Source of the DNA: Ectothiorhodospiraceae bacterium
Lineage (GTDB): Bacteria > Pseudomonadota > Gammaproteobacteria > Nitrococcales > Aquisalimonadaceae
Direction of reading: 5' to 3'
Length of the DNA stretch: 64,000 nucleotides
Assembly: GCA_007125985.1 (NCBI GenBank)
Contig: SLCE01000051.1
Span: 4,991-68,990 of the forward strand
Below, piece after piece: positions 1-63,168 of this stretch; position 1 is the first letter of the stretch; each line of letters begins with the position of its first letter. A model generated the notes under the pieces. That model was not told the origin of the DNA. It saw only the letters and a program-made list of their open reading frames with translations, and searched no databases. The position numbers were made by a program, and so were the translations under genes.

Positions 1-398
<398 letters not shown>

Positions 399-407
399 GG
401 GGGGCCC

Positions 408-41101: not shown

Positions 41102-41515
41102 TCAGGCCGCTTCTCTCGCGGCGATTTCCCGAATACGCTCCACCATGGCGAAAAAGCCGTTACGCCGGTTCGGCGTGAGCTGCTGTTCCAGCCCGAGTTT
41201 TTCGAACAGCCCTTTGATGTCGGTGCCCTGAATTTCCTCAGGTGTTCGCCCGGAATACGCCATCAGGATAATGGCGATCAGCCCCTTGACGATGAACGCG
41301 TCACTGTCGGCCCGGAAGTTCAGCCGGGGAGGGGGGCCGGGCTCCACTTCATGAATGAGCCACACGTTACTGGTACAGCCCTCCACCCGGTTTTCCTCGG
41401 TCTGCGCCTCTGCTGGCAATTCCGGCAGTTGTCGGCCCAGATCGATCAGCAGGCGGTAGCGCTCCTCCCAGTTGTCGAGGAATTCGAAGTTCTCGACCAG
41501 ATCATCCAATTGCAT
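41102..41515 (-). CDS. sufE: SufE/CsdE-family cysteine desulfuration (sulfur acceptor) protein
   Basis: Active-site loop RVEGCTSNVW and N-terminal FEFLDNWEERYRLLIDLG. Confidence 0.88.
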   Translation of the reverse strand: MQLDDLVENFEFLDNWEERYRLLIDLGRQLPELPAEAQTEENRVEGCTSNVWLIHEVEPGPPPRLNFRADSDAFIVKGLIAIILMAYSGRTPEEIQGTDIKGLFEKLGLEQQLTPNRRNGFFAMVERIREIAAREAA

Positions 41516-41637: not shown

Positions 41638-41898
41638 ATGCTGGTGGTGGAGTTCTATGGCGTGCTGCAGCAAGTGGCCGGCGCCAAATCCCTCAAGCTG
41701 GAGGCGGAACAGGCATCCCTTACGGTGGATGAGGCGCTGGAACTGCTGAGACAACAGATGCCAGGGCTGGCCGAGCACTTGCCGCGGGTGGCCTGCGCCC
41801 AGGCTGATCAACTGGTTCGGCGTGACCAGCCACTGGACCCGGAGCAGCCATTGGTGCTTCTTCCCCCGGTGAGTGGCGGTTGTGGGAGGCAGGCATGA
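41638..41898 (+). CDS. moaD: MoaD molybdopterin synthase sulfur-carrier subunit, with a 5-aa extension after Gly-Gly
   Basis: 86-aa beta-grasp protein ending LLPPVSGG-CGRQA-stop. The stop is embedded in the moaE start (ATGA). Confidence 0.8.
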   Translation: MLVVEFYGVLQQVAGAKSLKLEAEQASLTVDEALELLRQQMPGLAEHLPRVACAQADQLVRRDQPLDPEQPLVLLPPVSGGCGRQA

Positions 41899-42350
41899 GC
41901 TGGATGACAGACAACCCCCTGGATCTGGATTCGCTGCTGCAGGAGACGGATGATGATACCTGCGGCGCGTTGGTCGTGTTCGCCGGCACCGTGCGGAACC
42001 ACCATGAAGGCAAGGCAGTCAGCGGGATGAGCTATTCCGCGTACAAGCCCATGGCCGACCGCGTTCTCAGGGAGTTGGAGCAGGAGACACTGGCGCGCTA
42101 TCCGGTGGAGCAATGCCGCATCATGCATCGCACGGGTGATCTGGTGATCGGTGAGGCCAGTGTGCTGGTCGTGGTCCGCTCCCATCACCGGGCGGACGCC
42201 TTTGACGCCGCGCGCTATGCAATTGATACGCTCAAGATGCGCCTCCCAGTCTGGAAGCACGACATGTACACCGATGGAAGCACCGCCTACCAGGACGGTG
42301 TGCCCCTGGAAGATCCGCCGGCATCCGGCGCCCGGGCGAAGGAGGACTAA
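41895..42350 (+). CDS. moaE: MoaE molybdopterin synthase catalytic subunit
   Basis: GALVVFAGTVRNHHEGKAV and LPVWKHD motifs. Coupled to moaD and moaB. Confidence 0.88.
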   Translation: MSWMTDNPLDLDSLLQETDDDTCGALVVFAGTVRNHHEGKAVSGMSYSAYKPMADRVLRELEQETLARYPVEQCRIMHRTGDLVIGEASVLVVVRSHHRADAFDAARYAIDTLKMRLPVWKHDMYTDGSTAYQDGVPLEDPPASGARAKED

Positions 42351-42877
42351 TGGAACTGCAAGCTGATCGTGACGGTTTCATGGCGTTGCCTATCGCGGTG
42401 CTGACGGTCTCCGACACGCGTACCGAGGCGGATGACAAATCCGGCAAGCTGCTGGCGGACCGGCTTCAGCGTGCCGGCCATCAGCTGCAGGACAAGGTGA
42501 TTGTCCCCGATGACATCTACCAGGTGCGGGCTGTGGTCTCACGCTGGATAGCCGATGAGGCGGTGAAGGTGGTGATCAGCACGGGTGGAACCGGTATCAC
42601 CGGCCGGGATACCTCGCCCGAGGCGGTTCAGCCACTGCTGGACATGCAGATCGACGGCTTCGGTGAACTCTTCCGGCAGCTTTCCTTCGAGGAGATCGGA
42701 AGCTCCACCATTCAGTCCCGGGCTCTGGGTGGAGTTGCAAACGGCACTCTGGTGTTCGTGTTGCCCGGATCATCCGGAGCCTGCGCAACCGCGTGGGATC
42801 GCATCCTTCAGCCGCAGCTGGACCTGCGGACCAAACCCTGCAATTTCGTCTCCCTCATGCCGCGCCTGCGGGAATAA
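42350..42877 (+). CDS. moaB: MoaB/MogA-family molybdenum cofactor biosynthesis protein
   Basis: TVSDTR and TGGTGITGRD motifs. ATG shares one nt with the moaE stop. Confidence 0.88.
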   Translation: MELQADRDGFMALPIAVLTVSDTRTEADDKSGKLLADRLQRAGHQLQDKVIVPDDIYQVRAVVSRWIADEAVKVVISTGGTGITGRDTSPEAVQPLLDMQIDGFGELFRQLSFEEIGSSTIQSRALGGVANGTLVFVLPGSSGACATAWDRILQPQLDLRTKPCNFVSLMPRLRE

Positions 42878-43566: not shown

Positions 43567-44274
43567 ATGCGACGTCGATCCTTTGTGAAAGTGTGCGCCT
43601 TGGGGGCCGGCGCGATGGCGGCGGGCCCTGGCCTCCTGTTTTCCAGTGACCTGGTGCGCAGGGAGTATTCCAGAGTTCGACTGGTGGACTTCCACGGCCA
43701 GCCGCTGCGGCCGGCCGAACTGAGCCCGCAGCGGCACTATGTGTTCAATTATCCCTACCTGGCAACACCTTGTTTTCTGCTCAATCTGAATCGCCCCGTG
43801 CCCGGGCTCAACGGCCTGAGCACGGAACAGGGTGATCGGTACGCTTGGCAGGGTGGGGTGGGGCCGCAACGATCGCTGGTGGCCTATTCGGCGATCTGTG
43901 CCCACAAGATGGCGCATCCCACCACCGCAGTCAGTTACATCAGTTTCCGCCAGCCGCGCAATGGGGATGACCCGGAAACCGGTGTGATCAGTTGCTGCGC
44001 CGAGAACAGCGTGTACGATCCTTTCCGCGGCGGAAGAGTTATTTCCGGCCCAGCGCCTCAGCCGTTGGCCGCCATCGTGCTGGAATACGATGCTGAAAAT
44101 GACGCCCTGTACGCACAGGGCACGCTGGGCGGCGAGATGTTTCGCCGTTTCTTCAGTGAATTTGAGGCACGCCTGTCCCTGGAGTATCCCGACGGTGATG
44201 CGGCGCGGCCGCTGGAAGGCGATGTGGAAGTGATACCTCTTGAACGGTACAGCGCGAATATCATGCAGTGCTGA
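43567..44274 (+). CDS. TAT-exported Rieske-fold-like protein with atypical cluster motifs
   Basis: Twin-arginine signal MRRRSFVKVCALGAGAMAA. Box-1-like ICAHKMAHP and box-2-like SCCAENSVYDP, in an arrangement like the arsenite oxidase small subunit. Confidence 0.6.
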   Translation: MRRRSFVKVCALGAGAMAAGPGLLFSSDLVRREYSRVRLVDFHGQPLRPAELSPQRHYVFNYPYLATPCFLLNLNRPVPGLNGLSTEQGDRYAWQGGVGPQRSLVAYSAICAHKMAHPTTAVSYISFRQPRNGDDPETGVISCCAENSVYDPFRGGRVISGPAPQPLAAIVLEYDAENDALYAQGTLGGEMFRRFFSEFEARLSLEYPDGDAARPLEGDVEVIPLERYSANIMQC

Positions 44275-47913: not shown

Positions 47914-48528
47914 ATGGCGAAAGTGACCGGTCTGGTACTGGCTGGCGGGCGTGCAACCCGCATGGGTGGACAGGACAAAGGGCTGGTGGAACTGTGTGGC
48001 AAACCCATGGTGCTCCATGTGATGGAACGCCTGAGCCCGCAAGTGGAGCACCTGGTGATCAATGCCAACCGAAACCTGGACCGGTACCGTCAGTACCGAG
48101 CCCCTGTGGTTAGCGACGCGTTTGGTGACTTTGCCGGACCGTTGGCAGGAATGGCCGCGGGGATGGCGGTTGCTGAATCTGAACTGATCTGTACGGTGCC
48201 CTGTGATTCCCCCCTGGTGCCAGCCGATCTGGTGCAGCGTTTGTATCGTGCCTGGAGCGAATCTGCCAATGGCATCGCGGTCGCCTGGGCTCACGGTCGC
48301 CTGCAGCCTGTGTTCGCTCTCATTCCCGTCGCATTGCTGGATGACCTGCAGGCGGCGCTTGTGGCGGGGGAGCGCAAGATTGACCGCTGGTATAGACGCC
48401 ACCCCATGGTGGAAGTGGATTTCTCCGATCAGCCGGACACGTTTCTCAATGTCAACACACCTGCAGAACGGGACGCGCTGGAACAGCGACTTGTCCGGGA
48501 CTCCGACGGAGCAGGGGGGCTGGCATGA
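47914..48528 (+). CDS. mobA: Molybdenum cofactor guanylyltransferase MobA
   Basis: LVLAGGRATRMGGQDKGL N-terminal motif. 204 aa. Confidence 0.9.
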   Translation: MAKVTGLVLAGGRATRMGGQDKGLVELCGKPMVLHVMERLSPQVEHLVINANRNLDRYRQYRAPVVSDAFGDFAGPLAGMAAGMAVAESELICTVPCDSPLVPADLVQRLYRAWSESANGIAVAWAHGRLQPVFALIPVALLDDLQAALVAGERKIDRWYRRHPMVEVDFSDQPDTFLNVNTPAERDALEQRLVRDSDGAGGLA

Positions 48529-50891
48529 ATCTGCTGCAGGAACGGCTGCGCTCGCAACACGCTGCCTATGGTGACTGGCTGGCCCAGCGTCATGTCGCTG
48601 ACCGAGAATTGCAACGGCTGCTGAACCGCCATGCGGCACGGCGCGCGGCACCACTGGTTCTGACCGGGAGTGTGGACGGGCGCCTGTCTGCGGCTGTGAG
48701 TCATTGGCTTGCCCGATACGGCGACAATCACGGCGATGTTCCTGTGTTCCGCTATCACTTCGGCAGCAGCCGGGATGCCCGTCGGTCCGGTCAGGTGGTC
48801 AACCAATTGCTGCATTGGCTTCAGGAGCAGGCCGGCCTCCGGGAGCCGGTGCCAGCTGCCCCTGCGACTGCGCAGGAGGTACTACCCAACTGGCTCGCGC
48901 GGGCGGCGGCGTCACGATCGTTGGTATTGATGCTCGATGGAGTGGACAGCCAGGAGGGCCTGAGCGATGACAGTGGTCCAGCCTGGTTGCCCGCCTTTCT
49001 GCCGGAGTCCGTGCGTCTGGTGATGACCATGCGCCCCGGGCCCGAGGCGGAGGCGCTGAGGCAGCGTGGCTGGGAAATCTACCCGGTGGATGACAGCAGC
49101 ACATCCACAGTTGGGGATATGCTGGCGCAGTTGCCGGTGGGGCAGGCAGATGCCGTCTGCGCCCTGTGGGCCGCGCGGCACGGGCTGGAGCGGGACGTGG
49201 TACGGGGCCTGGGGTTCGATGACGCGGTGCCGGATGGGCTCACGTATCCGTGGGGCAATCATCTGTGCCTGGCCGGTGCAGAGGTGCAGGATGCCGCAGC
49301 CCGGAGGCTGATGCCGGATGGGATGGACCGGCAGGCCTGGCACGCACTGCTGGCACGTGGGCTGGAAGGCCGGCCAGAGGATCCGGTGCTGCTGGCCGAG
49401 CGCCTGTGGCATCTTGTGGCGGCGGCGGACTGGAGTTCCCTGGCGGCGCTGCTGACCGACCCGGCCGCGTTGCGCATCCTGCTGGCGCCGGAATGGCGGT
49501 ATGAGCTCCTGGAGGCCTGGGCTGCCTGGGGAGCGGATGAGGCGCGGGTGCACTATTACCTGGAAGCCGTTCAGGGTTGGGCGCCGCGTGAGGTCACGGA
49601 TGGGCCGGAACTGATCCTGAGTCTGACCGAGGCGTTCCGTGAACTTCAGCTGGACCAGGCGCTGGAGCCGCTGTTTCAGCATGCGATCAACCGGGAGCCG
49701 GGGGCTGAGGTGGGGTCGGCGTATGGTGGGTGGTTGATGGATCAAGGGCGGGCGCCGGAGGCGGAACCGCTGCTACGCCAGACGCTGGATGTGCTGGGAG
49801 GTCCCGCCGGCGATGCGGTCGAACTGCGGGCCGCCCGCCACCGGCTGGCCATGGTTCTGGAGCAGCAGGATCGACTGGACGAGGCGGAAGCCCTCTACCT
49901 GCTCGCGTTGAAGGAGCGCGAAGCCGCGCTGGGTCAACAGCATGTGGGGCTTCTGCCGCACCTGAACAATCTCGCTGCGGTGAGGAAGGCGCGGGATGAT
50001 TATACGGGTGCGCGCGGGCTGTATCAGCGTGCGCTGAGCCTGGCCGAGCGCCATTACGGACAGCGGCACCCCACCACGGCGGCCTGCCTCGACAACCTGG
50101 CCGGCCTGCTCTACGCCGGACAGGATCTGGAAGCGGCGGAGGATCTCTATCAACGGGCGCTGGGTGTCGCGGAAGCGGCGTTCGGGCCGTCACATCCTGC
50201 CACCGCTGCCTCGGCCCACAACCTGGCCACGGTGATGGATGCCCGGGAGCAGTTCCAGGCAGCGGAGAGTCTGTTCCGCCGCGCGGTACAAATCCGGGAA
50301 CTGGCGCTGGGAGCTGAACACATGGATACCGCTTCCAGCCTGCACAATCTGGCCGGGGTTCTGGATGCCATGGGGCGCTACGACGAGGCGGAACCGCTGT
50401 ACCGCAGGGCGCTGGAGACCTGGGAGGCATTGGTGGGGCGTGAACATCCCGCGACTGCCACCACGGTGAACAATCTGGCCGATCTATTGCGTGAAACGCG
50501 CCAGTGGAATGAGGCGGAGGCCTTGTACCGGCGCAACCTCAAAACCTGGTCGGAATTGCTAGGTGAATCCCATCCGCATGTGATCATGACGCGGGCGGAG
50601 CTGGCAGGTCTGTATGCGGACAAGGCAGATCAGGGACGCGCCGAACCCTTGCTGCGTCAGGCATTGCAGGAGACGCTGGAAGTGATGGGTGGAGCGCATC
50701 CACAGCACGTCGCCTGCGTGACCCGGTTGGCGGCATTGCTCAGGGACAGCGGACGTCGGACAGAAGCCCGCGACCTGCTGCGGCAGGCCATCGACAGGGC
50801 CGAGGGCACACTGGGGATGCTATCACCGCTGGTGCAGAAGCTGCGCAAGCATCTTGACGCGCTGCAGCTTGACGGGAACCGCTTACACTGA
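48525..50891 (+). CDS. NACHT-like STAND-domain protein with degenerate P-loop and about eight kinesin-light-chain-type TPRs
   Basis: The Walker A position reads LVLTGSVDGRLS (no GK[ST]). Walker B-like LVLMLDGVDS and VRLVMTMRP. C-terminal 42-aa repeats (..LNNLA..L......Y.EAE.LY.RAL...E...G..HP.TA). ATG overlaps the mobA stop. Confidence 0.75.
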   Translation: MNLLQERLRSQHAAYGDWLAQRHVADRELQRLLNRHAARRAAPLVLTGSVDGRLSAAVSHWLARYGDNHGDVPVFRYHFGSSRDARRSGQVVNQLLHWLQEQAGLREPVPAAPATAQEVLPNWLARAAASRSLVLMLDGVDSQEGLSDDSGPAWLPAFLPESVRLVMTMRPGPEAEALRQRGWEIYPVDDSSTSTVGDMLAQLPVGQADAVCALWAARHGLERDVVRGLGFDDAVPDGLTYPWGNHLCLAGAEVQDAAARRLMPDGMDRQAWHALLARGLEGRPEDPVLLAERLWHLVAAADWSSLAALLTDPAALRILLAPEWRYELLEAWAAWGADEARVHYYLEAVQGWAPREVTDGPELILSLTEAFRELQLDQALEPLFQHAINREPGAEVGSAYGGWLMDQGRAPEAEPLLRQTLDVLGGPAGDAVELRAARHRLAMVLEQQDRLDEAEALYLLALKEREAALGQQHVGLLPHLNNLAAVRKARDDYTGARGLYQRALSLAERHYGQRHPTTAACLDNLAGLLYAGQDLEAAEDLYQRALGVAEAAFGPSHPATAASAHNLATVMDAREQFQAAESLFRRAVQIRELALGAEHMDTASSLHNLAGVLDAMGRYDEAEPLYRRALETWEALVGREHPATATTVNNLADLLRETRQWNEAEALYRRNLKTWSELLGESHPHVIMTRAELAGLYADKADQGRAEPLLRQALQETLEVMGGAHPQHVACVTRLAALLRDSGRRTEARDLLRQAIDRAEGTLGMLSPLVQKLRKHLDALQLDGNRLH

Positions 50892-50902
50892 GATTGAGCG
50901 CC

Positions 50903-50946
50903 AATGGCTCGCAGAGCACCATGGTAATGGATCAGCGCTTCCCTAA
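50903..50946 (+). repeat. Dispersed intergenic repeat, copy D
   Basis: AATGGCTCGCAGAGCACCATGGTAATGGATCAGCGCTTCCCTAA fills the convergent gap between the TPR gene and the YqeC-like gene and overlaps the latter's stop codon. Confidence 0.85.
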
Positions 50947-51695
50947 CGTAAGATCACATCCACCAACAGATCAGGTTCCCGGTTGCTCAGCAGCACCACC
51001 CGGTCATAGCGGTCGGATTCCCGCAGGATGCGTGCAGCCACCTCCCGTCCCAGGCTCCGCTGTTCCGGCTCGTCCGCCATGTTCAGTACCGGAACCAAAT
51101 GATGGTCGACGGTGCCTTGCTGCAGGCCCTCCGGGTGGGTATAGAGTGCGCTCATGGTTGCGGCCGTGATCGGGCTGCCCTCGCGCTGGCCGGTCACCCG
51201 AAGCACGCGCTCGAGGCGATGAGCGACACGATCAGTCAGGGCCTCGCCAATGGCCAGCAACGAGCTCACCACCAGCACGATGTTGGCGAACTCCGGAATG
51301 AAGGGCTCATGGGCGCCGGGCACCTTGATGCGACGCATGCGCGCGCCGTCCGCCTTGATCAGGCTGAGATCAAAAGCCCCCTGGCGGTGCAGTTCCAGGA
51401 TCTGTTCGGCCGGTGGGCCGGCCAGCCGTCCGGGTTTGTCGGCGGGGCAGGCATACAGCAGCGGGGCAGCCGATTGCGGCGTGATGCGGTGGCGCAAGGT
51501 GGAGGCATCCGCAACCAGCACATGGGCTTTCAGGCCCCGGGGCGGTTGATATGTGAAGACTGAAGCCGTCATGGCCGCGCGGCCTGGATGCCGTTCCAGC
51601 AGGCCGTATAGAGTGCTCTTTTTGCCACCGGCGCCGATGGCGCACACCAGTCCCCGTTCCGCTTTCAGCGCCTGGAACAACGCCGTGGCGCTCAT
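50943..51695 (-). CDS. YqeC-like accessory NTPase (selenium-dependent Mo-hydroxylase maturation family)
   Basis: MSATALFQAL...CAIGAGGKKSTL P-loop-like motif and LIKADGARMRRIKVPGAHEPFIP. ATG overlaps the stop of the upstream propeller gene (ATGA). The N-terminal 72 aa of the track ORF were trimmed. Confidence 0.75.
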   Translation of the reverse strand: MSATALFQALKAERGLVCAIGAGGKKSTLYGLLERHPGRAAMTASVFTYQPPRGLKAHVLVADASTLRHRITPQSAAPLLYACPADKPGRLAGPPAEQILELHRQGAFDLSLIKADGARMRRIKVPGAHEPFIPEFANIVLVVSSLLAIGEALTDRVAHRLERVLRVTGQREGSPITAATMSALYTHPEGLQQGTVDHHLVPVLNMADEPEQRSLGREVAARILRESDRYDRVVLLSNREPDLLVDVILR

Positions 51696-52804
51696 ACAGC
51701 CGTATCCGTCCACGCGGCCACGCTCAGGATGCGGGGGAGGAATTCGGCAATGCACTGCCAGCGGGCACCGTGGTCGGCGGAGGCGAACAGGTGGCCGCTG
51801 GAGGTGCCAAAGTAGGCTCCGCAAGGTTGCAGCTGATCCAGGCAAAGCGCTTCCCGCAGCACCGTCACATACGCGTGATGCTGGGGCAGCCCGCCGGACC
51901 TGCTTTCCCAACTGCGTCCGCCGTCCGCGGAACGGAAGACCCGTAATCGGCCGCCCGGGGCGGTGCGTAGGTGGTTGCTGTCAATGGGGATCACCCACAC
52001 CGTGTCCGGATCCGCATGCTCGGTGGCCAGGGCGTAGCCGAAGTCGCTGGGGAGTCCGTCGGTGATTTCCGTCCAGGTTTCGCCGCCATTGTTGCTCCGG
52101 TACACGCCGTTGTAGCACTGGCGATAGAGCCGATCCGGATCCAGCGGATGGGCAAGTAGCCGGTGGACATTGTGCCCACTGCGTGCGTGCCCACCCGGCA
52201 GGTGCTCTGCTCTTACGCCCCGGTTGATCGGCCGCCAGTGTGCACCGTGGTCATCGCTGCGGTAGACACCACCGGCGGAAACTGCCGCATACAGCCGCGC
52301 CGGGTCCAGCGGACACTGATGAATGGAGTGCAGGGAGAAGCCACCCTTGGCCGGCTCCCAGGTGTCGCGGCTCGGATGAGTATTTAATGCGTCCATCGGC
52401 GACCATCCACAGGCCCCGTCACGGCTGATGAACAGTCCGGCCGGGTCAATACCCGCATACAGGGTGCGGGGCTCAGAGGCGAGACCGGGTGCCAGATGCC
52501 AGATAGCCTTCAGACGGCTTCCCTGAAAATCTGACGGGTGGGTCGGAACGGCCTCCAGGGGATCCCAGCTGCGTCCGTAGTCCGTGGTGCGATAAAGGTG
52601 TGCCCCCCAGATCTCATGGTGGGTGGCCGCGTATCCCAGCCCGGGCGCCCGCGGATCAAGCCAGGCATGCAGCACCTCGTAACCCGCGATCAGCGGGCCC
52701 TGCATATGCCAATCCCGGCGTTGCCCGTCGCTGTGCAGGCGAAACAACCCTTTCTGTGTGCCGACCAGGAGGATCACCTGGGCGGGACGTTCCGATGAGG
52801 GCAT
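51692..52804 (-). CDS. Cytoplasmic Asp-box (BNR) beta-propeller protein
   Basis: Six Asp-box motifs (TTDYGRSW, SRDGACGW, SDDHGAHW, SNNGGETW, SADGGRSW, SADHGARW) and no signal peptide. The 5' part of the 651-aa track ORF is antisense to the JAMM and Ubl genes and was trimmed. Confidence 0.8.
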   Translation of the reverse strand: MPSSERPAQVILLVGTQKGLFRLHSDGQRRDWHMQGPLIAGYEVLHAWLDPRAPGLGYAATHHEIWGAHLYRTTDYGRSWDPLEAVPTHPSDFQGSRLKAIWHLAPGLASEPRTLYAGIDPAGLFISRDGACGWSPMDALNTHPSRDTWEPAKGGFSLHSIHQCPLDPARLYAAVSAGGVYRSDDHGAHWRPINRGVRAEHLPGGHARSGHNVHRLLAHPLDPDRLYRQCYNGVYRSNNGGETWTEITDGLPSDFGYALATEHADPDTVWVIPIDSNHLRTAPGGRLRVFRSADGGRSWESRSGGLPQHHAYVTVLREALCLDQLQPCGAYFGTSSGHLFASADHGARWQCIAEFLPRILSVAAWTDTAV

Positions 52805-52868
52805 ACAGCGTTCACCTTCACGGCGTGTGACCAGACAAGATCCCATTCCACCAGAAACAACGAGCGCA

Positions 52869-52883
52869 AGGGAAGCGCTGATC
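52869..52883 (-). repeat. Half copy (right arm) of the dispersed repeat, copy E
   Basis: The reverse complement, GATCAGCGCTTCCCT, is identical to 15 nt of copy D. It lies in the divergent propeller / JAMM promoter region. Confidence 0.45.
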
Positions 52884-52905
52884 TTGTGCCAGGGAATACG
52901 ATAGA

Positions 52906-53319
52906 GTGGAGGGCATGAATACTGTCGTTCTCCCATTGCCATTGTGTGGCTGGCTTCAGCAGGAAAGCCGGCTGGGCTCGCCGCAAGAGGTCTGCGGTCT
53001 GGTGCTGGGCCAGCGCCAGGAGTCTGTGGTGCGGGTTCATCGGGTACTTGCGGCGGAAAACATTGCCGAGCGGCCAGAGACGGGTTACCTGATTGATCCC
53101 GAATTCTACCTGCAGGTGGAGCATCAGGCCGCCGACGAGGGGCGTTCGGTTGTCGGCGTCTACCACAGTCATCCCATGGGCAAGCCTGTTCCTTCCGATA
53201 CGGATCTGGAACTGGCCTGGCCTGACTGGTCCTACGTGATCGTGGGCGCTGACGGCACTCTGCGGTCCTGGAGGCTGGTGGAAAAACGGTTTGTGGAGGA
53301 GGCCATCCGTCTTGAGTGA
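52906..53319 (+). CDS. JAMM/MPN (M67) metalloprotease, Mec+/QbsD-like
   Basis: Complete JAMM signature: Glu in SPQEVCG, then HSH-PMGKPVP-S-DT-D (H-x-H-x7-S-x2-D). Start is GTG 52906 or ATG 52915. Confidence 0.88.
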   Translation: MEGMNTVVLPLPLCGWLQQESRLGSPQEVCGLVLGQRQESVVRVHRVLAAENIAERPETGYLIDPEFYLQVEHQAADEGRSVVGVYHSHPMGKPVPSDTDLELAWPDWSYVIVGADGTLRSWRLVEKRFVEEAIRLE

Positions 53320-53320
53320 G

Positions 53321-53590
53321 GTGATTGTGCGGTTGCCGCCACCCCTGCGGGCCTTTGCGGACGGGAAAGCGGAATTGCGGCTGCCCGGCGCGACCGTGGG
53401 GCAGGTGCTCAGCTGCCTGAGTGATCTGCATCCCGGTGTGGGGCAGCGTCTGTTCGGCCCGGATAACGAACTGCGGCCGTACATCAACATCTTCCACGGC
53501 GAGCGCCACATTGCCCGGCTGGAAGGGCTTGCCACACCGGTGCGACCTGGCGATGTGGTGTCCATCATTCCGGCGGTGGCGGGGGGCTGA
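53321..53590 (+). CDS. ThiS/MoaD-fold sulfur-carrier (ubiquitin-like) protein, CysO-like, with a free C-terminal Gly-Gly
   Basis: Ends GDVVSIIPAVAGG-stop. GTG 53321 lies 2 nt after the JAMM stop; the ORF is open from 53291, so the start is uncertain. Confidence 0.85.
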   Translation: MIVRLPPPLRAFADGKAELRLPGATVGQVLSCLSDLHPGVGQRLFGPDNELRPYINIFHGERHIARLEGLATPVRPGDVVSIIPAVAGG

Positions 53591-53609
53591 CCACAAGGGC
53601 CCGGGGGCT

Positions 53610-54881
53610 TCAGTTGCCCATGACTCCCTCGAAAGGCTGCACGTCAACGTACTCGCCCGCCGCTATCGCCCCGCTGTCGTGTGGCACGACGATGAAGCAG
53701 TTCGCCCGGCTGACCGAATTCAGAATGCCCGAGCCCTGGCTGCCCGTGGTCCGGACCACCAGTTCCCCGTCCGGTTGCCGTTTCAGAATGCCCCGCTGGA
53801 ATTCTGTGCGGCCGGGGCGTTTGCGCAGGCGGTCCAGCGTTCGTACCCGAAAGCTCAAGGGGCGCTCCAGCTTCTGTCCCATCATGCGGCGCAGTGCCGG
53901 CTGAACGAACTGGTACCAGGTGGCCACCACGGAAACCGGATTGCCGGGTAGGCCGAAGAACCGGGCTGAACCGATACGGCCGAATGCCAGCGGGCGTCCC
54001 GGCCGCATGGCAATTTTCCAGAAGCTCACTTCGCCCAGCTGTTCGAGGATATCCTTGACGAAGTCTGCTTCTCCAACGGATACGCCGCCGGAGGTGATGA
54101 CAGCGTCCGCGAAACCGGCGGCGTCACGGAAGGCGGTCTCCATCGCTGCCGGCTCGTCCGGAACCACGCCCATGTCGGTGACGTCCACGCCCAGGCGTTG
54201 CAGAACGGCGTGAAGGGTGTAACGGTTGCTATCGTAGATCTGGCCCGCCTCCAGCTGCGTACCGGCACTCTGCAGTTCATCGCCGGTGGAGAAATAAGCC
54301 ACGCGAAGCCGGCGGTACACGCCAATCTCCACCAGACCAAGGGATCCCAGCATGCCGAGTTCCGCCGGTCCCACACGCGTGCCGGCTGAGAACACGGTCT
54401 GCCCCAGTTGCAGGTCCTCGCCGGCGCGGCGGACGTTCTGGCCCGGTTTATGGTCGGCGCCAATGCGCACGGAGTTCCCATCCGCTTCGGCCTGTTCCTG
54501 GATCACCACCGTGTCACTGCCCGGCGGCATGGGTGCCCCGGTCATGATGCGCACACACTCGCCCGCGGCCACCGTCCCGTGGAACGGGCGGCCGGCGAGC
54601 GCGGTGCCCACCAGCCGCAGCGCGGCCGTGCCTGATGCCGGCAGGTCGGCGGCGCGCAGCGCATAGCCATCCATGGCGGAGTTGTCATGCGCGGGGACAT
54701 CCACAGTGGAGCGGATATCCTCGGCCAGCACCCGACCCAGCGACTGGCGGACATTAAGGCGTTCCACACCGGCGACGGGCTGGATGTCGGTCTGGATGCG
54801 CTCCCAGGCAGCGTCTACGGGTAGGGAGGTCGGGTCGGAATCGTCCTGGCAGGACGGATCAAAACTGATCTGCTTGTTCAT
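53610..54881 (-). CDS. moeA: Molybdopterin molybdenumtransferase MoeA
   Basis: 423 aa with SAMDGYALRA, GGVSVGEADF and LPGNPVS motifs. Confidence 0.92.
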   Translation of the reverse strand: MNKQISFDPSCQDDSDPTSLPVDAAWERIQTDIQPVAGVERLNVRQSLGRVLAEDIRSTVDVPAHDNSAMDGYALRAADLPASGTAALRLVGTALAGRPFHGTVAAGECVRIMTGAPMPPGSDTVVIQEQAEADGNSVRIGADHKPGQNVRRAGEDLQLGQTVFSAGTRVGPAELGMLGSLGLVEIGVYRRLRVAYFSTGDELQSAGTQLEAGQIYDSNRYTLHAVLQRLGVDVTDMGVVPDEPAAMETAFRDAAGFADAVITSGGVSVGEADFVKDILEQLGEVSFWKIAMRPGRPLAFGRIGSARFFGLPGNPVSVVATWYQFVQPALRRMMGQKLERPLSFRVRTLDRLRKRPGRTEFQRGILKRQPDGELVVRTTGSQGSGILNSVSRANCFIVVPHDSGAIAAGEYVDVQPFEGVMGN

Positions 54882-54900: not shown

Positions 54901-55911
54901 TTATCCCCCGGTCACACTCATGTGCCGGAAGATCACGGGTTTGGCGTCCAGGTTGAAGTCATGACCACGGGGCTTGATGTCCATGGCGGCGACAATGGCA
55001 CGCTTGAGTCGGTCCATGTCGCCGGGATGACTGCGCAGGACCTGTTTCAGGTTCATGGAGTGCTCCTGGCCCAGGCACAGAAGCAGTTGCCCCTCCGTGG
55101 TTACGCGCACCCGGTTGCAGCTGTCACAGAAATTGTGACTATGCGGCGAAATGAAACCAACGCGCGTATCGCTGCCCGGAATCCGGAAATAGCGGGACGG
55201 ACCACCGGTTTTCTCCGCCGTTTCCACCAGTTCATGCCGTGCGCGGATCAGATCTGCCACCTCGTCACTGGACATGTAGACTTCGGCGCGATCATGGTCG
55301 TCGATGACGCCCAGCGGCATTTCCTCGATGAAACTGATGTCCATGCCGCGATCAAGGACGTAGCGCACCAGGTCGAGGATTTCATCGTCGTTGCGGTTCC
55401 GCATGGCGACGGTATTGATCTTGATACGCTCGAAACCTGCATCCCGGGCCGCGTCGATCCCCCGCAGGACCTTGTGCAGATCGCCAACCCGGGTGATGCG
55501 GCGGAAGCGCTCCGGATCGAGGCTGTCCAGGCTGATGTTCAGGCGTCGTACGCCGGCATCCCGTAGGGGCTGTGCCAGGCGCTCCAGCTGTGAACCGTTG
55601 GTGGTCAGCGTCAGTTCGCGGAGCCCGGGCAATCGGCCCAACTCGCGAAACAGCCAGATCACATTATTGCGGACCAGAGGCTCACCCCCGGTGATGCGGA
55701 GCTTCGTGACCCCCAATTCGGTGAAGGCGCGACCCAGCGTGGCCATTTCCTCCAGCGTCAGCACCTGTGCCCGGGGCAGAAACGTCATGTCTTCGCTCAT
55801 GCAATACACACAGCGAAAATCGCAACGGTCTGTGACTGACAGGCGCACATAGGTCACGTGTCGCCCGAATCGGTCCACAAGCTTGTCCGGGAGTCCGCTG
55901 TCTGCGCTCAT
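54901..55911 (-). CDS. moaA: GTP 3',8-cyclase MoaA (radical SAM)
   Basis: CDFRCVYC radical-SAM motif, C-terminal CDSCNRVR cluster motif, and a terminal GG. Start placed at ATG 55911 ([17 protein letters not shown]). Confidence 0.92.
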
Positions 55912-56337: not shown

Positions 56338-56922
56338 TTGCGTCTGAATGATCAGAATGATCAGAGCAGTGACCAGCAATCCGTGGACCATGCGCTGCCC
56401 GGAGTGGCGCGTTTGCCTGTGGCCGTGATGATCGGCTGCCCCGGCGGTGAACCTGCCAAATCGGCGCGGAATTGGCAGATCACCGGTGTGATCGCGGGTC
56501 AGCAATTCGCTGCCGATCAGGTCCAGTGCAGCCAGGTGCGGTCCGGGCCGGACGCCGAATTGTATCTCTGGCGGGGTTTCAGTCTGCGGCTGCGGCCTGC
56601 GCAGGCGGCGGACTATGCGCTCAATCTGGGCTCCGGCAACCCGCGGGTGTTCGTGATTGCGCGGTTTGAGCCCGGTTTCGGGCTGCGCCCGCTGCAAGTC
56701 ACGGTCAGCCTGGATGAGGCGCAGAATCTCGACACCACCGAGCTGCGCAGTGCTGATGAACTGGTGCTCAACGCTCCCATGCCGGGAGAGGTTGGGCTTT
56801 GGGTGGAGGATTTCGTTAACACGCACTACCAGCCGCGCCGCAAGGGCGGCAAGCGCGGTAAGCGGCGCAGCAAAGCGATTTATGACGCGGAAGTCGGAGA
56901 CTACGCCGGAGACGATGCATGA
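56338..56922 (+). CDS. DUF3305-like protein (formate dehydrogenase cluster associated)
   Basis: Conserved core PVAVMIGC...WQITGV...LYLWRGF. GGAGGAG RBS 10 nt before TTG 56338. The ORF is open from ATG 56260, but that would place the sigma54-like promoter inside it. Start uncertain. Confidence 0.7.
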   Translation: MRLNDQNDQSSDQQSVDHALPGVARLPVAVMIGCPGGEPAKSARNWQITGVIAGQQFAADQVQCSQVRSGPDAELYLWRGFSLRLRPAQAADYALNLGSGNPRVFVIARFEPGFGLRPLQVTVSLDEAQNLDTTELRSADELVLNAPMPGEVGLWVEDFVNTHYQPRRKGGKRGKRRSKAIYDAEVGDYAGDDA

Positions 56923-57569
56923 CTGAGCAAAAGACTCCCGTGAATCCAAAGATCACCGCAGAGCTGGAATCCGAGGAAACCGGTTTTCTGAGCCGTTGGT
57001 CCCGCCGCAAAGCCGGGTTGGAGCCGGAAGAGCCCGATGTTCCGATGCCCACGACGGAACAAGCGGTGCCAGAGCAGGCGAGTGGTGAAGCGGCAGGGGC
57101 AACGGATTCTGTCCGGGTGGACCCCCGCACGGGAAAACCGGTGGATGAGCTCACGGATGAGGACATGCCGCCGGTGGAGTCCCTGAATGAGAATTCGGAC
57201 CTCAGTGTGTTCATGGGCAAACGCATTTCGCCCGCCCTGCGCATGAAAGCGCTTAACCGGGTATTTCATACCGCCAAGTTCAACAAAGTGTGTTTGTGCG
57301 CCGAGTACGCGGACGACTACACGAATTTCACGCCCATGGGCGACATCATCCCCCACGATCTGAAACAGGCGATCGTGCGTGAGGCCACCAAGCTCCGTGA
57401 CCGCTTGTCCGAACACGGCTTGGAAATCAGTGCCGAGGATGCCGAGACGCGCGTGGCCGCCGAGTACCGCGGAGAAAAGCTCCCGGATATCGAGGAATTG
57501 GCCCGGGAGACCACGCAGCAGGAAATCGCACAGGCGGAGCGGGAGCGCCCCGACCGCCTGCAAGGCTGA
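56919..57569 (+). CDS. DUF3306-like protein (formate dehydrogenase cluster associated)
   Basis: N-terminal GFLSRWSRRK motif. ATG overlaps the upstream stop (ATGA). Confidence 0.75.
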   Translation: MTEQKTPVNPKITAELESEETGFLSRWSRRKAGLEPEEPDVPMPTTEQAVPEQASGEAAGATDSVRVDPRTGKPVDELTDEDMPPVESLNENSDLSVFMGKRISPALRMKALNRVFHTAKFNKVCLCAEYADDYTNFTPMGDIIPHDLKQAIVREATKLRDRLSEHGLEISAEDAETRVAAEYRGEKLPDIEELARETTQQEIAQAERERPDRLQG

Positions 57570-57606
57570 CACCGACGCCGGGTACAACCTGGCCAACAGA
57601 GACGCC

Positions 57607-59331
57607 ATGACAGAACTTCTGAGACTTTACGACGACCTGGGTTTTGGTGAGGACGCTCGTGCCACGGCGGCACGGCGTGCCGCTCTTGCCGCAGCGCTGG
57701 CTGTGGAGGTGGACCCGACATCGATTGTTGATTATCGGTCCGCCGGATTCCTGCTCATCATCGGTGGCGAGTTGGATGCCCTGGAGTGTGCCGATATGCT
57801 GCGGAGCCGGCTCCATTGCACTGTCATGGCCACGAATCGGCACGACGGGGAACTCTCCGAGTCGGCCCGGTCGGCGCTTGCGGACGAGGGGCAGGTGCTC
57901 ATGCTTCACGGTGAGCCGGGACCGATTGAAGGTCATCTGGGAAGGTTTTCGGTCCGCCTGCGCACACCCCGGGGAGAGGATCTGGCGCCAGCGGAGTTCA
58001 GCCGCGCGGATCACCCCTATTTCGATCTGGTGCTGGATTTGCGTCGCGAGCCCGGGCTGCGCATGGAACTGCCACCGTTCGGTTATTACGCCCCGGCCGG
58101 GGATGCCGAGCGGCTTGCGCGGGCCATGGACGAGATACCGCAGATGACCGGGGAATTCGAAAAGCCGCGTTTCTATCATTACAACCCGGACATCTGTGCC
58201 CACGGTGATAGCGGGCTCACCGGGTGTACACGCTGCATCGACGCCTGCCCGACGGGTGCTATCCGCTCACTGGGTGAGCAGGTGGAGGTTGATCCGTATC
58301 TATGTCAGGGCGCGGGCACCTGCGCCAGTGTCTGCCCAAGCGGCGCCATGATTTACGCCTATCCCGGGCCCAAGGACCAGATTGCCCGGCTCCGGGGGAT
58401 GTTGCAGGCATATCGTGATGCGGGAGGTGAGGCCGGCCCGCTACTGGTATTTCATGATGACGAGGCCGGTGAGCAGCGTCTGCGGGCGTTGGCACCGGGG
58501 CTGCCCGTGAACAGTATTCCCGTGCGGGTGGCGGACATCGGTTCCGTGGGTATGGATCAGTGGTTCAGCGCGCTGGCCTATGGCGCCGGGGGTATTGTGC
58601 TGATCGACACCGGAGAGGTTCCGGGCACCGTGCGTGGCGCCATGCAGGCACAACTGGACTACGCACGTCCTATCCTGGAGGCCATGGGCTACAGCCCGCA
58701 GCGGCTTTGCTGGCTCGATGTCCACCAACAGGCTGACGCCCTGGATGGCATTGATCCACTGGACATTTCGGCCGCCAGCTTCGATACCTTTAATGAGAAG
58801 CGTGGCACCTTGCGTCTGGCGCTGGACCATCTGTTTGAGCAGGGCAGTGCGCGGCCGGTGGAGGTCAATCTGCCCCAGGGCGCACCCTTCGGGCGCGTGC
58901 AGGTGGATACCGAGGCCTGCACGTTGTGCATGTCCTGTCCGCAGGTCTGTCCGACCCGGGCTTTGACGGATGCCGGCGACAAGCCGCAGCTGAGCTTCAC
59001 CGAAGATCTCTGCGTGCAATGCGGCCTCTGTGAGGTCGCTTGCCCGGAGAACGCGATCACGCTGGATGCCCGCTTCCTGTTCGACTGGGAGCAGCGGCGG
59101 CGTCCGCGGGTGCTGAATGAGGAGGAGCCGTTCTGTTGTGTGAGTTGCGGCAAGCCGTTCGCCACGGCCAGCGTGATTCAGCGTATGACGCAGCGGCTAG
59201 AAGGCCATCACATGTTCCAGACGGCTGAAGCTGTGCGTCGCCTGCAGATGTGCGGGGACTGCCGGGTGGTGGACATGTTCCAGGACGATCTGGAAGGCGG
59301 TTCCAAGCCGCGTTGGTTCGGGCCGCAATAG
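57607..59331 (+). CDS. Multi-cluster 4Fe-4S ferredoxin-domain protein (FDH cluster)
   Basis: Four CxxCxxCxxxCP motifs (CTRCIDACP, CQGAGTCASVCP, CTLCMSCPQVCP, CVQCGLCEVACP) plus a C-terminal CCVSC...CGDC. Start at ATG 57607 (MTELLRLYDD). Confidence 0.85.
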   Translation: MTELLRLYDDLGFGEDARATAARRAALAAALAVEVDPTSIVDYRSAGFLLIIGGELDALECADMLRSRLHCTVMATNRHDGELSESARSALADEGQVLMLHGEPGPIEGHLGRFSVRLRTPRGEDLAPAEFSRADHPYFDLVLDLRREPGLRMELPPFGYYAPAGDAERLARAMDEIPQMTGEFEKPRFYHYNPDICAHGDSGLTGCTRCIDACPTGAIRSLGEQVEVDPYLCQGAGTCASVCPSGAMIYAYPGPKDQIARLRGMLQAYRDAGGEAGPLLVFHDDEAGEQRLRALAPGLPVNSIPVRVADIGSVGMDQWFSALAYGAGGIVLIDTGEVPGTVRGAMQAQLDYARPILEAMGYSPQRLCWLDVHQQADALDGIDPLDISAASFDTFNEKRGTLRLALDHLFEQGSARPVEVNLPQGAPFGRVQVDTEACTLCMSCPQVCPTRALTDAGDKPQLSFTEDLCVQCGLCEVACPENAITLDARFLFDWEQRRRPRVLNEEEPFCCVSCGKPFATASVIQRMTQRLEGHHMFQTAEAVRRLQMCGDCRVVDMFQDDLEGGSKPRWFGPQ

Positions 59332-59342
59332 GGAGCGTCGAG

Positions 59343-59960
59343 ATGAAGGCAGTAGATCAAATCCCGAACGACAGCGCTGTTGCGGCACAGGATGCGCAGC
59401 GTGCGGGAACCTGGACATTGCTCGGCCGTCTGCTTGCCGGGCCGCCGGACCATCAGGTTCTGGAACTGATCAAAGGCATCGGAGATGCATCGCCCGGAAA
59501 CCCGGATCCCGTTGCCCAGGGCTGGATGGACCTGAGGCAGGCGGCTTTGGAAATGGCTCCCGAGCAGCTGGATCCGGAATTTCAGGATGTGTTCATCGGC
59601 ATGGGCGGCGGGGAAGTGACCCCGTATGCCTCCTGGTACCGATCCGGCTCTCTGATGGAGCGCCCGTTGGTGGCGGTGCGGCAGGAACTGGAGGCGCTGG
59701 GTATCCGGCGTCTGGCAGACAACAACGAGCCGGAGGATCACGCGGCCACACTGTGCGAGACCATGGCGCTGGTGATCAGTGATCCGGAAGTGGACTTCGA
59801 CTGGCAGCGGGACTTCTTCCAGCGGCATCTGGAGCCCTGGATGGGGCACTTTTTCAAGGATCTTCAGCAGGCGCCCTCAGCCCGATTCTATAAGGCAGTG
59901 GGGGGGCTTGGTGAGACCTTTGTGCGGCTTGAGGAACGTTTCTTTGCCATGCCGGCCTGA
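59343..59960 (+). CDS. TorD/DmsD-like molybdoenzyme chaperone
   Basis: All-helical, about 205 aa, TorD-family pattern (EFQDVFIG...PYASWY...EPEDHAATLCE). Lies immediately upstream of the TAT-signal genes. Confidence 0.8.
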   Translation: MKAVDQIPNDSAVAAQDAQRAGTWTLLGRLLAGPPDHQVLELIKGIGDASPGNPDPVAQGWMDLRQAALEMAPEQLDPEFQDVFIGMGGGEVTPYASWYRSGSLMERPLVAVRQELEALGIRRLADNNEPEDHAATLCETMALVISDPEVDFDWQRDFFQRHLEPWMGHFFKDLQQAPSARFYKAVGGLGETFVRLEERFFAMPA

Positions 59961-60012
59961 GCGTCGGCATTTGATAACGAGACATTGCGATTGAGTGAGG
60001 GAGGAGAGAGCA

Positions 60013-60222
60013 ATGAGCAGACAAGAGGATCAGGGGCTGACGTCCCGTCGACGTTTTCTGAAGACGGTGGCCGCCACCGGCGGCGCCGTGGCCGTGACCG
60101 CAGCTGTGGGCCAGGCGGCAACTGCATCGGAGAGCGAACCCGAGCAGCCCGCGGCTCGCAGCGAGACCGGCTACCACGAAACCCCGCATATCCGGGACTA
60201 CTACGCCAGGGCGGAGTTCTGA
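60013..60222 (+). CDS. Small twin-arginine-signal protein of the FDH region
   Basis: 69 aa, SRRRFLKTVAATGGAVAV, conserved C-terminus YHETPHIRDYY. GAGGAGAG RBS. Confidence 0.75.
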   Translation: MSRQEDQGLTSRRRFLKTVAATGGAVAVTAAVGQAATASESEPEQPAARSETGYHETPHIRDYYARAEF

Positions 60223-60264
60223 GGCCCGTGCCCCGGAACTCCCGCTGACGTAAGGAGAACGACC

Positions 60265-63147: not shown

Positions 63148-63168
63148 ACCGAATGGAGGAGAGCCATC

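Follow-up and report, generated by a model that had tools for sequence, protein, structure and literature searches.

A 64,000-bp segment of the genome of an Ectothiorhodospiraceae bacterium (assembly GCA_007125985.1, contig SLCE01000051.1, positions 4,991–68,990 of the forward strand; the whole segment is hereafter called the window) contains two short, divergently transcribed operons that lie among genes for molybdenum cofactor (Moco) biosynthesis and formate dehydrogenase (FDH). The first operon, on the minus strand, encodes a 370-aa cytoplasmic seven-bladed Asp-box beta-propeller of the 3b7f or 'YP_299179.1' family (51692–52804) and a 250-aa YqeC-family P-loop (SIMIBI-class) NTPase (50943–51695), and the stop codon of the propeller gene overlaps the start codon of yqeC (ATGA). 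The second operon, on the plus strand, encodes a Prok-JAB or JAMM (MPN+) zinc metalloprotease of 134–137 aa, which starts at either GTG (52906) or ATG (52915) and ends at 53319, and an 89-aa ThiS/MoaD-fold ubiquitin-like (Ubl) carrier similar to CysO and SAMP1 (53321–53590), the gene for which starts one base after the JAMM stop codon and ends as AVAGG-TGA. The two operons are separated by a divergent intergenic region of 101 bp (52805–52905), in which no consensus sigma-70 promoter was found and a promoter/terminator scan gave nothing above the shuffled expectation. A preliminary description of the window had listed these open reading frames (ORFs) with their coordinates, the divergent gap and the ATGA overlap, all of which agree with the ORF list and the translations, and had treated the four genes as a single module. 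Our results separate them into two conserved modules, propeller-yqeC and JAMM-Ubl, which are placed in a Moco/FDH supercluster and very probably work together.

Genes in the window were identified with a codon-usage caller. Related loci were obtained from a scan of a genome collection with the propeller alignment, which gave 80 loci with 10-kb flanks, designated by numbers below (L002, etc.). Longest-ORF and GC3 gene calling proved unsuited to these 80 loci, because antisense ORFs won, and counts were therefore taken from tblastn tables. In this 63% GC DNA, very long spurious antisense or extended ORFs are present, e.g. a 651-aa ORF on the minus strand (51692–53647), which extends from the propeller gene across those for JAMM and Ubl.

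Products of the four genes and history of the carrier

The propeller contains five Asp-boxes that conform to the strict S/T-x-D/N-x-G-x-x-W pattern (residues 73, 183, 237, 292, and 342) and additional degenerate ones (SRDGACGW and HSDGQRRDW), so that the six motifs counted earlier are about right. Its Pfam matches are BNR/Sortilin-Vps10 repeats. PDB entry 3b7f (Reut_B4987) was matched by the propeller family profile with an hmmsearch E-value of 1e-103 (residues 6–366), and the AlphaFold2 model (predicted local distance difference test score, pLDDT, 88.9) was aligned to it by Foldseek with a template modelling (TM) score of 0.91, an rmsd of 2.9, and 38% identity. The 3b7f protein represents the functionally uncharacterized seven-bladed 'YP_299179.1 family' and has a central tunnel of ~9 x 11 Angstrom (Quistgaard & Thirup 2009, PMC2716378). 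More than 4500 propeller homologues with 56–100% identity were among the matches listed, and the polar residues T16, K18, H159, H214, Q229, R280, and R317 are invariant across the family. The N-terminus lacks a hydrophobic segment typical of a signal peptide, as had been noted before. A cytoplasmic Asp-box propeller, which had been regarded as unexpected, is thus not unusual in itself, its family being large, cytoplasmic, and represented by a solved structure.

The fold, the family, the seven blades, and the absence of a signal peptide are all shared with the 3b7f entry, whereas the label of that entry ('putative glycosyl hydrolase with BNR repeats') is unsupported for the window propeller. 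A glycosidase or sialidase identity was rejected on the basis of profile scores (BNR_2, 19.4 bits vs. 31.4; BNR_3, 17 vs. 27; F510_1955, 64 vs. 175), and GH74 identity on the basis of structural comparison, in which GH74 structures reached only a TM score of ~0.6 with 14–20% identity. A secreted glycosidase was likewise dismissed, given the N-terminus without a hydrophobic segment and the surroundings of the gene, which contain Moco and FDH genes and no carbohydrate genes. The annotation 'exo-alpha-sialidase', which propellers of the 3b7f family carry in genomes, is probably wrong. Other members of the family were found in different settings: P0302, a 704-aa protein from the library of representative proteins, combines a Ser/Thr protein kinase domain with a complete propeller in one polypeptide, and in Rhodobacter sp. 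CZR27 (L087, 3598–7125), a homologue that has no adjacent Ubl gene is divergent from the ergothioneine genes egtB-egtD, which constitutes another sulfur-chemistry neighbourhood, albeit in a single case.

The YqeC protein was assigned to its family by PF19842 (E=2e-24, 86.8 bits vs. 27.6) and by TIGR03172 (130.6 bits vs. a cut-off of 73.05), and it contains a P-loop-like GAGGKKS motif at residue 21. The AlphaFold2 model (pLDDT 94.8) adopts a SIMIBI-class P-loop fold, the nearest PDB folds of which are the G-domains of MeaB, MMAA, and IcmF, together with FlhG/MinD, SRP54, HypB, and CooC (TM scores, 0.41–0.46). No sequence relative was found in the PDB, and MobB was not among the top fold matches, for which all TM scores were below 0.5. 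These fold neighbours include many NTP-gated cofactor-insertion chaperones, such as MeaB, HypB, and CooC, the similarity being remote. The window protein shares with the YqeC proteins of Escherichia coli and Clostridia the family itself, a score above the curated cut-off and the genetic link to molybdoenzyme or Moco genes, but differs from them in being paired with a propeller and in having a Cys-type FDH as a neighbour, not a hydroxylase of the xanthine dehydrogenase (XDH) type.

The JAMM protein matches PF14464 (78.7 bits vs. a cut-off of 25) and PF01398 (27.4 vs. 22.5). Its catalytic motif is intact, as had been proposed, comprising E25 in EVCG and HSHPMGKPVPSDTD at residue 84 (H84-x-H-x7-S-x2-D). 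The best PDB matches are Pyrococcus furiosus JAMM1 (5lda), with which it aligns, and 2kcq, and the closest proteins of solved structure are P. furiosus JAMM1 and two bacterial MPN proteins; the score for the haloarchaeal desampylase family NF041370 (100.9 bits) is below the equivalog cut-off of 130. The Ubl protein matches PF02597 (36.5 bits vs. a cut-off of 22.5), and its best sequence matches in the PDB are the Thermus MoaD-related protein 1v8c, M. tuberculosis CysO (3dwg_C, E=2e-11), and SAMP1. The resemblance to CysO noted in the preliminary description is thus real, and the JAMM, ThiS-fold, and YqeC assignments made there were all upheld by the profile searches (PF14464, PF02597, and TIGR03172). 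The Ubl scores for the SAMP1 family NF041918 (55.5 bits; cut-off, 60) and the archaeal MoaD family TIGR01687 (41.2 bits; cut-off, 49.5) are both below the cut-offs.

Orthologues of the Ubl retain the sequence AVAGG or AIAGG. In L003–L012 and L015, the ORF continues beyond AVAGG into a rhodanese domain and a ThiF-type E1 domain; the 479-aa protein of L004, for example, contains Pfam domains ThiS (residues 5–91), Rhodanese (112–201), and ThiF (220–458), and the start of its gene is overlapped by the JAMM gene. In the window, the stop codon directly follows the second Gly codon, and the convergent moeA gene ends 19 bp further. In L002, the closest relative, a degenerate linker of ~60 nt remains after the Ubl sequence, and the deletion is visible in the DNA alignment (A4). 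The read-through in the relatives and the linker remnant in L002 indicate that the rhodanese-E1 half was deleted in the lineage of the window. To judge from these alignments, the Gly-Gly terminus, which had been described as ready-made, is a secondary and derived state. The same half was lost more than once, i.e. in the window and L002, in L013, and in L014, whereas the sister Aquisalimonas loci (L009 and L012) keep the fusion, and this repeated loss suggests redundancy with another MoeB. The dN/dS values relative to L002 are 0.14 for JAMM, 0.26 for Ubl, 0.12 for the propeller, 0.18 for YqeC, and 0.09 for MoeA. All four genes of the two operons are under purifying selection after the loss of the E1 and are not decaying pseudogenes. 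As JAMM and Ubl are still constrained, the Ubl is presumably served by an E1 encoded in another part of the genome.

In 11 loci, a rhodanese-ThiF E1 is either part of the Ubl orthologue or encoded next to it, and by comparison with these, the JAMM-Ubl pair is a reduced copy of the 'JAB + ThiS/MoaD + E1-rhodanese' operon. An operon of this composition was listed for Alkalilimnicola ehrlichii by Iyer, Burroughs & Aravind in 2006 (Table 1, row 4b; PMC1779556); the pairing of a JAMM protease with a Ubl is therefore known, and the part of the earlier proposal that took the module to be undescribed does not hold for this half. The standalone Prok-JAB and the Gly-Gly-type Ubl are shared with that operon, as is the bacterial family (Ectothiorhodospiraceae), and the relatives of the window also have the ThiF-type E1 with rhodanese. 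The differences are several. The E1-rhodanese part is missing from the window, while the full set is found in L003–L012, L015, L050, and A. ehrlichii (L098). The relatives encode a single Ubl-rhodanese-E1 polypeptide, whereas separate genes with a C-terminal rhodanese were described in the paper, which also states that no cofactor-pathway genes are present there and does not mention the propeller neighbour; the cassette in the window is embedded in Moco genes.

Linkage of the carrier, the propeller and YqeC in other bacteria

Among the 80 related loci, yqeC lies directly after the propeller gene in 69, from Gammaproteobacteria, Gemmatimonadota, and Nitrospira-labelled metagenome-assembled genomes (MAGs), and the stop and start codons usually overlap; the propeller-yqeC pair thus represents the core unit. 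A Ubl gene is present within 2.5 kb of the propeller gene in 26 loci, arranged either as propeller-yqeC-Ubl or as a divergent JAMM-Ubl operon, and a JAMM gene is nearby in 18. Loci of Ectothiorhodospiraceae and Aquisalimonadaceae have the layout of the window. A single operon, mobA-moeA-moaB-propeller-yqeC-[JAMM]-Ubl-[moeB]-moaA, unites the genes in Gammaproteobacteria outside these families (Woeseiaceae-like and Chromatiales MAGs). The operon DUF3305-DUF3306-FeS-TorD-like-FdhA adjoins the module together with a sigma-54 regulator in 16 loci, which include distant Gammaproteobacteria, down to ~30% identity. The link to FDH suggested in the preliminary description thereby gains support. Molybdoenzyme genes were also seen in other configurations, i.e. 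an XDH-family enzyme 4 kb from the propeller gene in L071 and, as an exception, the gene order fdhD-mobA-moeA-propeller in L078. [quoted passage not shown] A DUF6505 gene, which the window lacks, is located directly upstream of propeller-yqeC in eight loci from Acidiferrobacterales, Nitrospira-labelled, and other MAGs (L017, L021, L022, L025, L026, L028, L032, and L042; ~9300–9950).

When the propeller protein was used as a query against annotated plasmids and chromids, an 89-aa 'MoaD/ThiS family protein' ending in ALSGG-stop emerged, the gene for which is located 20–120 bp upstream of genes for 33–36%-identical propellers. Such pairs were found in Ralstonia, Burkholderia, Cupriavidus, Mitsuaria, and Pseudomonas aeruginosa, without YqeC and with otherwise unrelated flanks. 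In Arthrobacter, a Gly-Gly-ended Ubl gene is located directly downstream of the propeller gene, again without YqeC, and in A. ehrlichii (L098), genes for JAB and a ThiS-Rhodanese-ThiF protein are divergent from the propeller gene, with neither yqeC nor Moco genes nearby. No Ubl gene adjoins the propeller homologues of Streptomyces, Rhodobacter, and Marivivens.

When 1.84 billion representative proteins were searched with a profile of the propeller family, 3917 matches at E<=1e-30 were obtained, including two fusion proteins (P0327 and P0374) with the organization ThiS-GG-linker-propeller. The gene for P0374 stands at the end of a Mo-hydroxylase operon (L099, 3272–9362), which also encodes Fer2_2, a MoCoBD large subunit, FAD_binding_5, an 81-aa protein, and DUF1326. 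Two further representatives were picked blind to their context (L102 and L103), and in both a Ubl gene adjoins the propeller gene: the Ubl in L102 is downstream of the propeller and ends in AVSGG-stop, and that in L103 is upstream and ends in AISGG-SRRRQPPAAP. In L100, a ThiS gene is located 0.9 kb upstream.

Conserved adjacency across phyla with changing flanks, in combination with domain fusion, is standard evidence for direct functional partnership. The Ubl and the propeller display both features, and we infer on this basis that they are partners, as are MoaD and MoaE or ThiS and ThiG. To our knowledge, the Asp-box propeller fold is not known to use thiocarboxylates. The layout of P0327 and P0374, and that of the adjacent genes, is similar to that of the two classical pairs, in which a Gly-Gly-ended carrier is located beside its acceptor or fused to it, the carrier being N-terminal in the known MoaD-MoaE and ThiS-ThiG fusions (PMC1779556). 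Some of these fusions are cleaved by a JAMM protease (e.g. Deinococcus DRJAMM), and a JAMM is likewise available here. The difference lies in the putative acceptor, a seven-bladed Asp-box propeller, and in the retention of a normal MoaD-MoaE pair in the window. Collectively, the counts in the survey (propeller with YqeC in 69 of 80 loci and Ubl within 2.5 kb in 26), the pairs, and the fusions uphold the linkage that the preliminary description had raised from a single locus, and the independent pairs without YqeC, A. ehrlichii, and the two fusions make the link between the Ubl and the propeller stronger than could be known from the window. No earlier description of a Ubl or thiocarboxylate carrier, or of YqeC, together with the propeller was found in the open-access literature searched. 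The JAMM-Ubl pairing, the cytoplasmic Asp-box propeller family (uncharacterized), and YqeC (an orphan) were already known individually, while the association of a Ubl with a 3b7f-type propeller and YqeC, the fusions, and the placement beside Moco, FDH, and Mo-hydroxylase genes appear not to have been described before.

Molybdenum cofactor, formate dehydrogenase and other neighbouring genes

The two operons are flanked by Moco genes on both sides. On the right, moeA for molybdenum insertion (53610–54881, minus strand) is convergent with the Ubl gene and was identified from sequence and synteny, with 68–85% identical orthologues at the equivalent position in the closest related loci (L002–L015); it is followed by moaA for radical-SAM synthesis of cyclic pyranopterin monophosphate (54901–55911, minus strand), the orthologues of which are 77–89% identical in the closest loci. 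On the left, mobA (47914–48528, plus strand) adjoins the module in 24 loci. The four genes had been placed between mobA and moeA-moaA, and this position stands, except that a gene for a 788-aa tetratricopeptide repeat (TPR) protein (48525–50891, plus strand; Pfam TPR_10/TPR_12), which overlaps mobA by 4 nt, separates mobA from yqeC. Fifteen close loci (L002–L015) retain the TPR gene at this position, and the N-terminal ~400 residues of its product have no Pfam family match.

A canonical set of moaD (41638–41898), moaE (41904–42350; PF02391, E=4e-38), and a moaB/mogA-like gene (42350–42877; PF00994, E=3e-31), all on the plus strand and 10 kb upstream of the module, was found by the codon-usage gene call and Pfam. 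This set (41638–42877) had been overlooked in the preliminary description. With a canonical moaD in the window, the JAMM-linked Ubl is the second ThiS/MoaD-fold protein there. MoeB requires a MoaD with a free Gly-Gly carboxylate, and the product of the window moaD gene (identified by PF02597 and sequence) is a precursor, in which LLPPVSGG is followed by the five-residue tail CGRQA; this tail must therefore be removed, which gives the JAMM protease an obvious job. PPVSGG is invariant among the relatives of this MoaD, and the tails are variable (0–10 residues). All tailed MoaD proteins that could be mapped to a locus are from JAMM-bearing genomes (the window, L003, L004, L005, L010, and Aquisalimonas), and there are also JAMM genomes in which MoaD has no tail (L015 and A. 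ehrlichii). The co-occurrence of tailed MoaD and JAMM is consistent with, although not proof of, a role of JAMM as MoaD processor, and the MoaD precursor is the likely substrate predicted for the window JAMM. Cleavage of MoaD-MoaE by a bacterial JAMM is documented (PMC8832034).

Downstream of the Moco genes, an FDH operon (56338–63759, plus strand; identified by Pfam DUF3305 and Nitrate_red_del and by ORFs) encodes DUF3305 and DUF3306 proteins, a 4Fe-4S protein, a TorD-like chaperone, a protein with a twin-arginine translocation (TAT) signal peptide, a Cys-type FdhA, and FdhB. The catalytic subunit is an uninterrupted 960-aa ORF (60265–63147, plus strand), and its Cys (in QARICHSTTVAG) is located at the position that corresponds to selenocysteine in E. 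coli FdnG. Homologues of MoeB, CysK, FdhD, SelD, and MoaC were not detected in the window in tblastn searches with E. coli queries, and the same queries matched in related loci, which served as positive controls (MoeB in 11 loci, FdhD in L078, and MoaC in 3). The earlier observation that CysM, an E1, and fdhD are missing from the window thus agrees with the searches for CysK, MoeB, and FdhD. No Rfam family reached its gathering score in the window, i.e. no Moco riboswitch was detected.

Several other genes in the window are related to sulfur or Moco metabolism or are syntenic with Moco genes. A sufE gene (41102–41515, minus strand) is divergent from moaD-moaE-moaB, and ORFs that resemble sufC-sufD-sufS-sufU, as judged by translation, are located at the start of the window (3–3438, plus strand); together with sufE, they might supply the carriers through a sulfur relay. 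The protein encoded at 43567–44274 (plus strand), 235 aa in length, bears a twin-arginine signal (MRRRSFVK...) and has no Pfam match, and in the relatives its gene is syntenic with moaB and an ApbC/NUBPL-type gene.

Proposed sulfur-transfer function and alternative explanations

From these gene identities, linkages, and fusions, we tentatively propose that the Ubl-propeller-YqeC system performs a sulfur-transfer step in the maturation of the Mo/W-pterin cofactor, a reading that could well be wrong. JAMM would expose Gly-Gly termini, in the window that of the MoaD precursor (PPVSGG-CGRQA) and in the relatives also that of the Ubl-rhodanese-E1 fusion. Such trimming past Gly-Gly parallels that by QbsD, which removes the tail of QbsE. 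A MoeB/ThiF-type E1 encoded elsewhere in the genome would adenylate the Ubl, leading to its thiocarboxylate. The Ubl would then dock on the propeller, a dedicated partner that would have the role that MoaE, ThiG, or CysM has for other carriers, and YqeC would act as a nucleotide-gated cofactor-handling factor, so that the three proteins together deliver sulfur to Mo/W-pterin cofactor maturation. In view of the neighbourhoods with FDH, fdhD/mobA, and XDH-family genes, formation of the terminal sulfido ligand of FDHs and Mo-hydroxylases would be the most appealing candidate for this step. The proposed task would resemble those of FdhD (with IscS) and XdhC (with a NifS-like desulfurase), which provide the sulfido ligand of FDH- and XDH-family cofactors, and the placement beside FDH or Mo-hydroxylase operons is also similar; however, there is no sequence relationship to these proteins, and the proposed donor is a Ubl-thiocarboxylate, not a persulfide. 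That the 3b7f-family propeller is a new thiocarboxylate acceptor beside MoaE, ThiG, CysM, and the TtuA type, and constitutes with YqeC a widespread sulfur route to the Mo/W-pterin, is a stronger claim that we regard as doubtful.

A number of observations weigh against the proposed role in cofactor sulfuration. The coupling is not obligatory in cis, since 54 of the 80 loci have no Ubl gene within 2.5 kb of the propeller gene, and no cognate E1 (MoeB/ThiF) for the Ubl is encoded in the window. The propeller-yqeC pair stands alone in Gemmatimonadota, with no Moco genes nearby, and many Ubl-propeller pairs, such as those of Ralstonia and Pseudomonas, are not near genes for Mo-enzymes, so the process that these pairs serve may be more general than Moco. 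In Nonomuraea (L095, 5081–5392), a beta-grasp ORF that starts 4 nt after the propeller gene ends in VLPALA without Gly-Gly, a terminus which speaks against a general need for activation at the C-terminus. The co-occurrence of fdhD and the propeller gene in L078 weakens the simple idea of an 'FdhD replacement'. The cases that connect MoaD tails with JAMM all belong to one clade and are not phylogenetically independent, and a yqeC deletion in Clostridioides difficile had no phenotype in a selenium-dependent system (PMC11448449).

Four other explanations were considered. The Ubl could be a second MoaD-type carrier for MoaE, with JAMM processing only MoaD and the Ubl, and with propeller-YqeC separately engaged in Moco handling (storage, insertion, or a MobB-like function); the proximity of the propeller and Ubl genes would then merely reflect a shared Moco supercluster. 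This is possible but rather unlikely in our estimation. It would accommodate the location of the Ubl among mobA, moeA, moaB, and moaA, the fusion or adjacency to a MoeB-type E1 in the relatives, the 54 propeller-yqeC loci without Ubl, and the MoaD tail, which explains JAMM without the propeller, and SAMP1-type proteins, the closest relatives of the Ubl, act as MoaD in archaea (PMC4443979). However, a canonical moaD is already present beside moaE in the window, and co-residence cannot explain the fusions or the Ubl-propeller pairs found far from Moco genes in Beta- and Gammaproteobacteria and Actinobacteria. We consider it improbable that the Ubl is conjugated to lysines, e.g. of Moco-pathway enzymes, in a manner similar to sampylation or urmylation, with deconjugation by JAMM and a receptor, adaptor, or target role for the propeller. 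The NCBIfam matches to desampylase and SAMP1, which point in this direction, are both below their cut-offs, there is no E2- or E3-like gene, and many Ubl-propeller pairs have no JAMM nearby. The rhodanese domain fused to the Ubl in the relatives is a hallmark of sulfur mobilization and argues for sulfur transfer and against tagging. Reversible conjugation by SAMP1 and HvJAMM1 regulates MPT synthase (PMC4443979), and related propellers (sortilin and Ycf48) bind peptide C-termini, as far as the titles of their PDB entries indicate; both observations are compatible with tagging.

In the arrangement of mec and cysO, the JAMM gene is immediately upstream of a Gly-Gly-ended Ubl gene, and cysM is adjacent in CysO systems. 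The window shares with Mec+/CysO/CysM and QbsD/QbsE the JAMM gene directly upstream of a gene for a ~90-aa Gly-Gly-ended beta-grasp carrier, and CysO (3dwg_C) is a top sequence match of the Ubl; rows 4c and 4d of Iyer et al. also contain JAB/Ubl/E1 operons with cysteine synthase (PMC1779556). The Ubl-thiocarboxylate could accordingly feed a CysM- or MetY-like pyridoxal phosphate enzyme encoded elsewhere, with JAMM freeing cysteine or homocysteine and with the propeller and the Moco adjacency having no meaning. This appears highly improbable, given that tblastn with CysK detected no PALP-type cysteine synthase either in the window or in the 10-kb surroundings in L001–L081, siderophore genes are likewise missing from the window and related loci, and it is the propeller, YqeC, the E1, and Moco genes that are conserved in the neighbourhood. 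A cysM-type partner, which might have accounted for the JAMM-Ubl pair, therefore does not explain it at the level of the locus. Even less credence can be given to the participation of selenium, in which YqeC would assist in the synthesis of the labile selenium cofactor of a molybdenum hydroxylase, with the Ubl as selenium carrier. YqeC passes TIGR03172 at the equivalog level and would receive the name 'selenium cofactor biosynthesis protein YqeC' from the annotation pipeline PGAP, and YqeC has been linked to selD and Mo hydroxylases, the link being purely phyletic (Haft & Self 2008, PMC2276186). However, no SelD homologue was found in the window or in L001–L081 by tblastn, yqeB not having been searched for, and the FDH is of the Cys type, its catalytic subunit being an uninterrupted ORF; these points, together with the C. 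difficile deletion, speak against the selenium insertion that had been raised as an alternative in the preliminary description. The cofactor-maturation interpretation put forward there is partly supported and gains from the Moco linkage, and the observation on which it was based is confirmed.

Ubiquitin signalling has its prokaryotic roots in sulfur-carrier Ubl systems, and with the discovery of each further acceptor, new chemistry has come to light. If the sulfur-transfer proposal is correct, a biochemical role would be assigned both to YqeC and to a propeller that has been an orphan of structural genomics, and the involvement of Moco would explain the origin of the sulfido ligand of FDH and Mo-hydroxylases in many bacteria in which the FDH genes cluster without fdhD. 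YqeC, an open question since 2008, and the 3b7f propeller family gain a testable context, and the tailed MoaD precursors and Ubl-rhodanese-E1 fusions provide clear in vitro substrates for a bacterial JAMM. The Ubl-propeller pair is carried by model organisms, including Ralstonia, Burkholderia, P. aeruginosa, and Alkalilimnicola.

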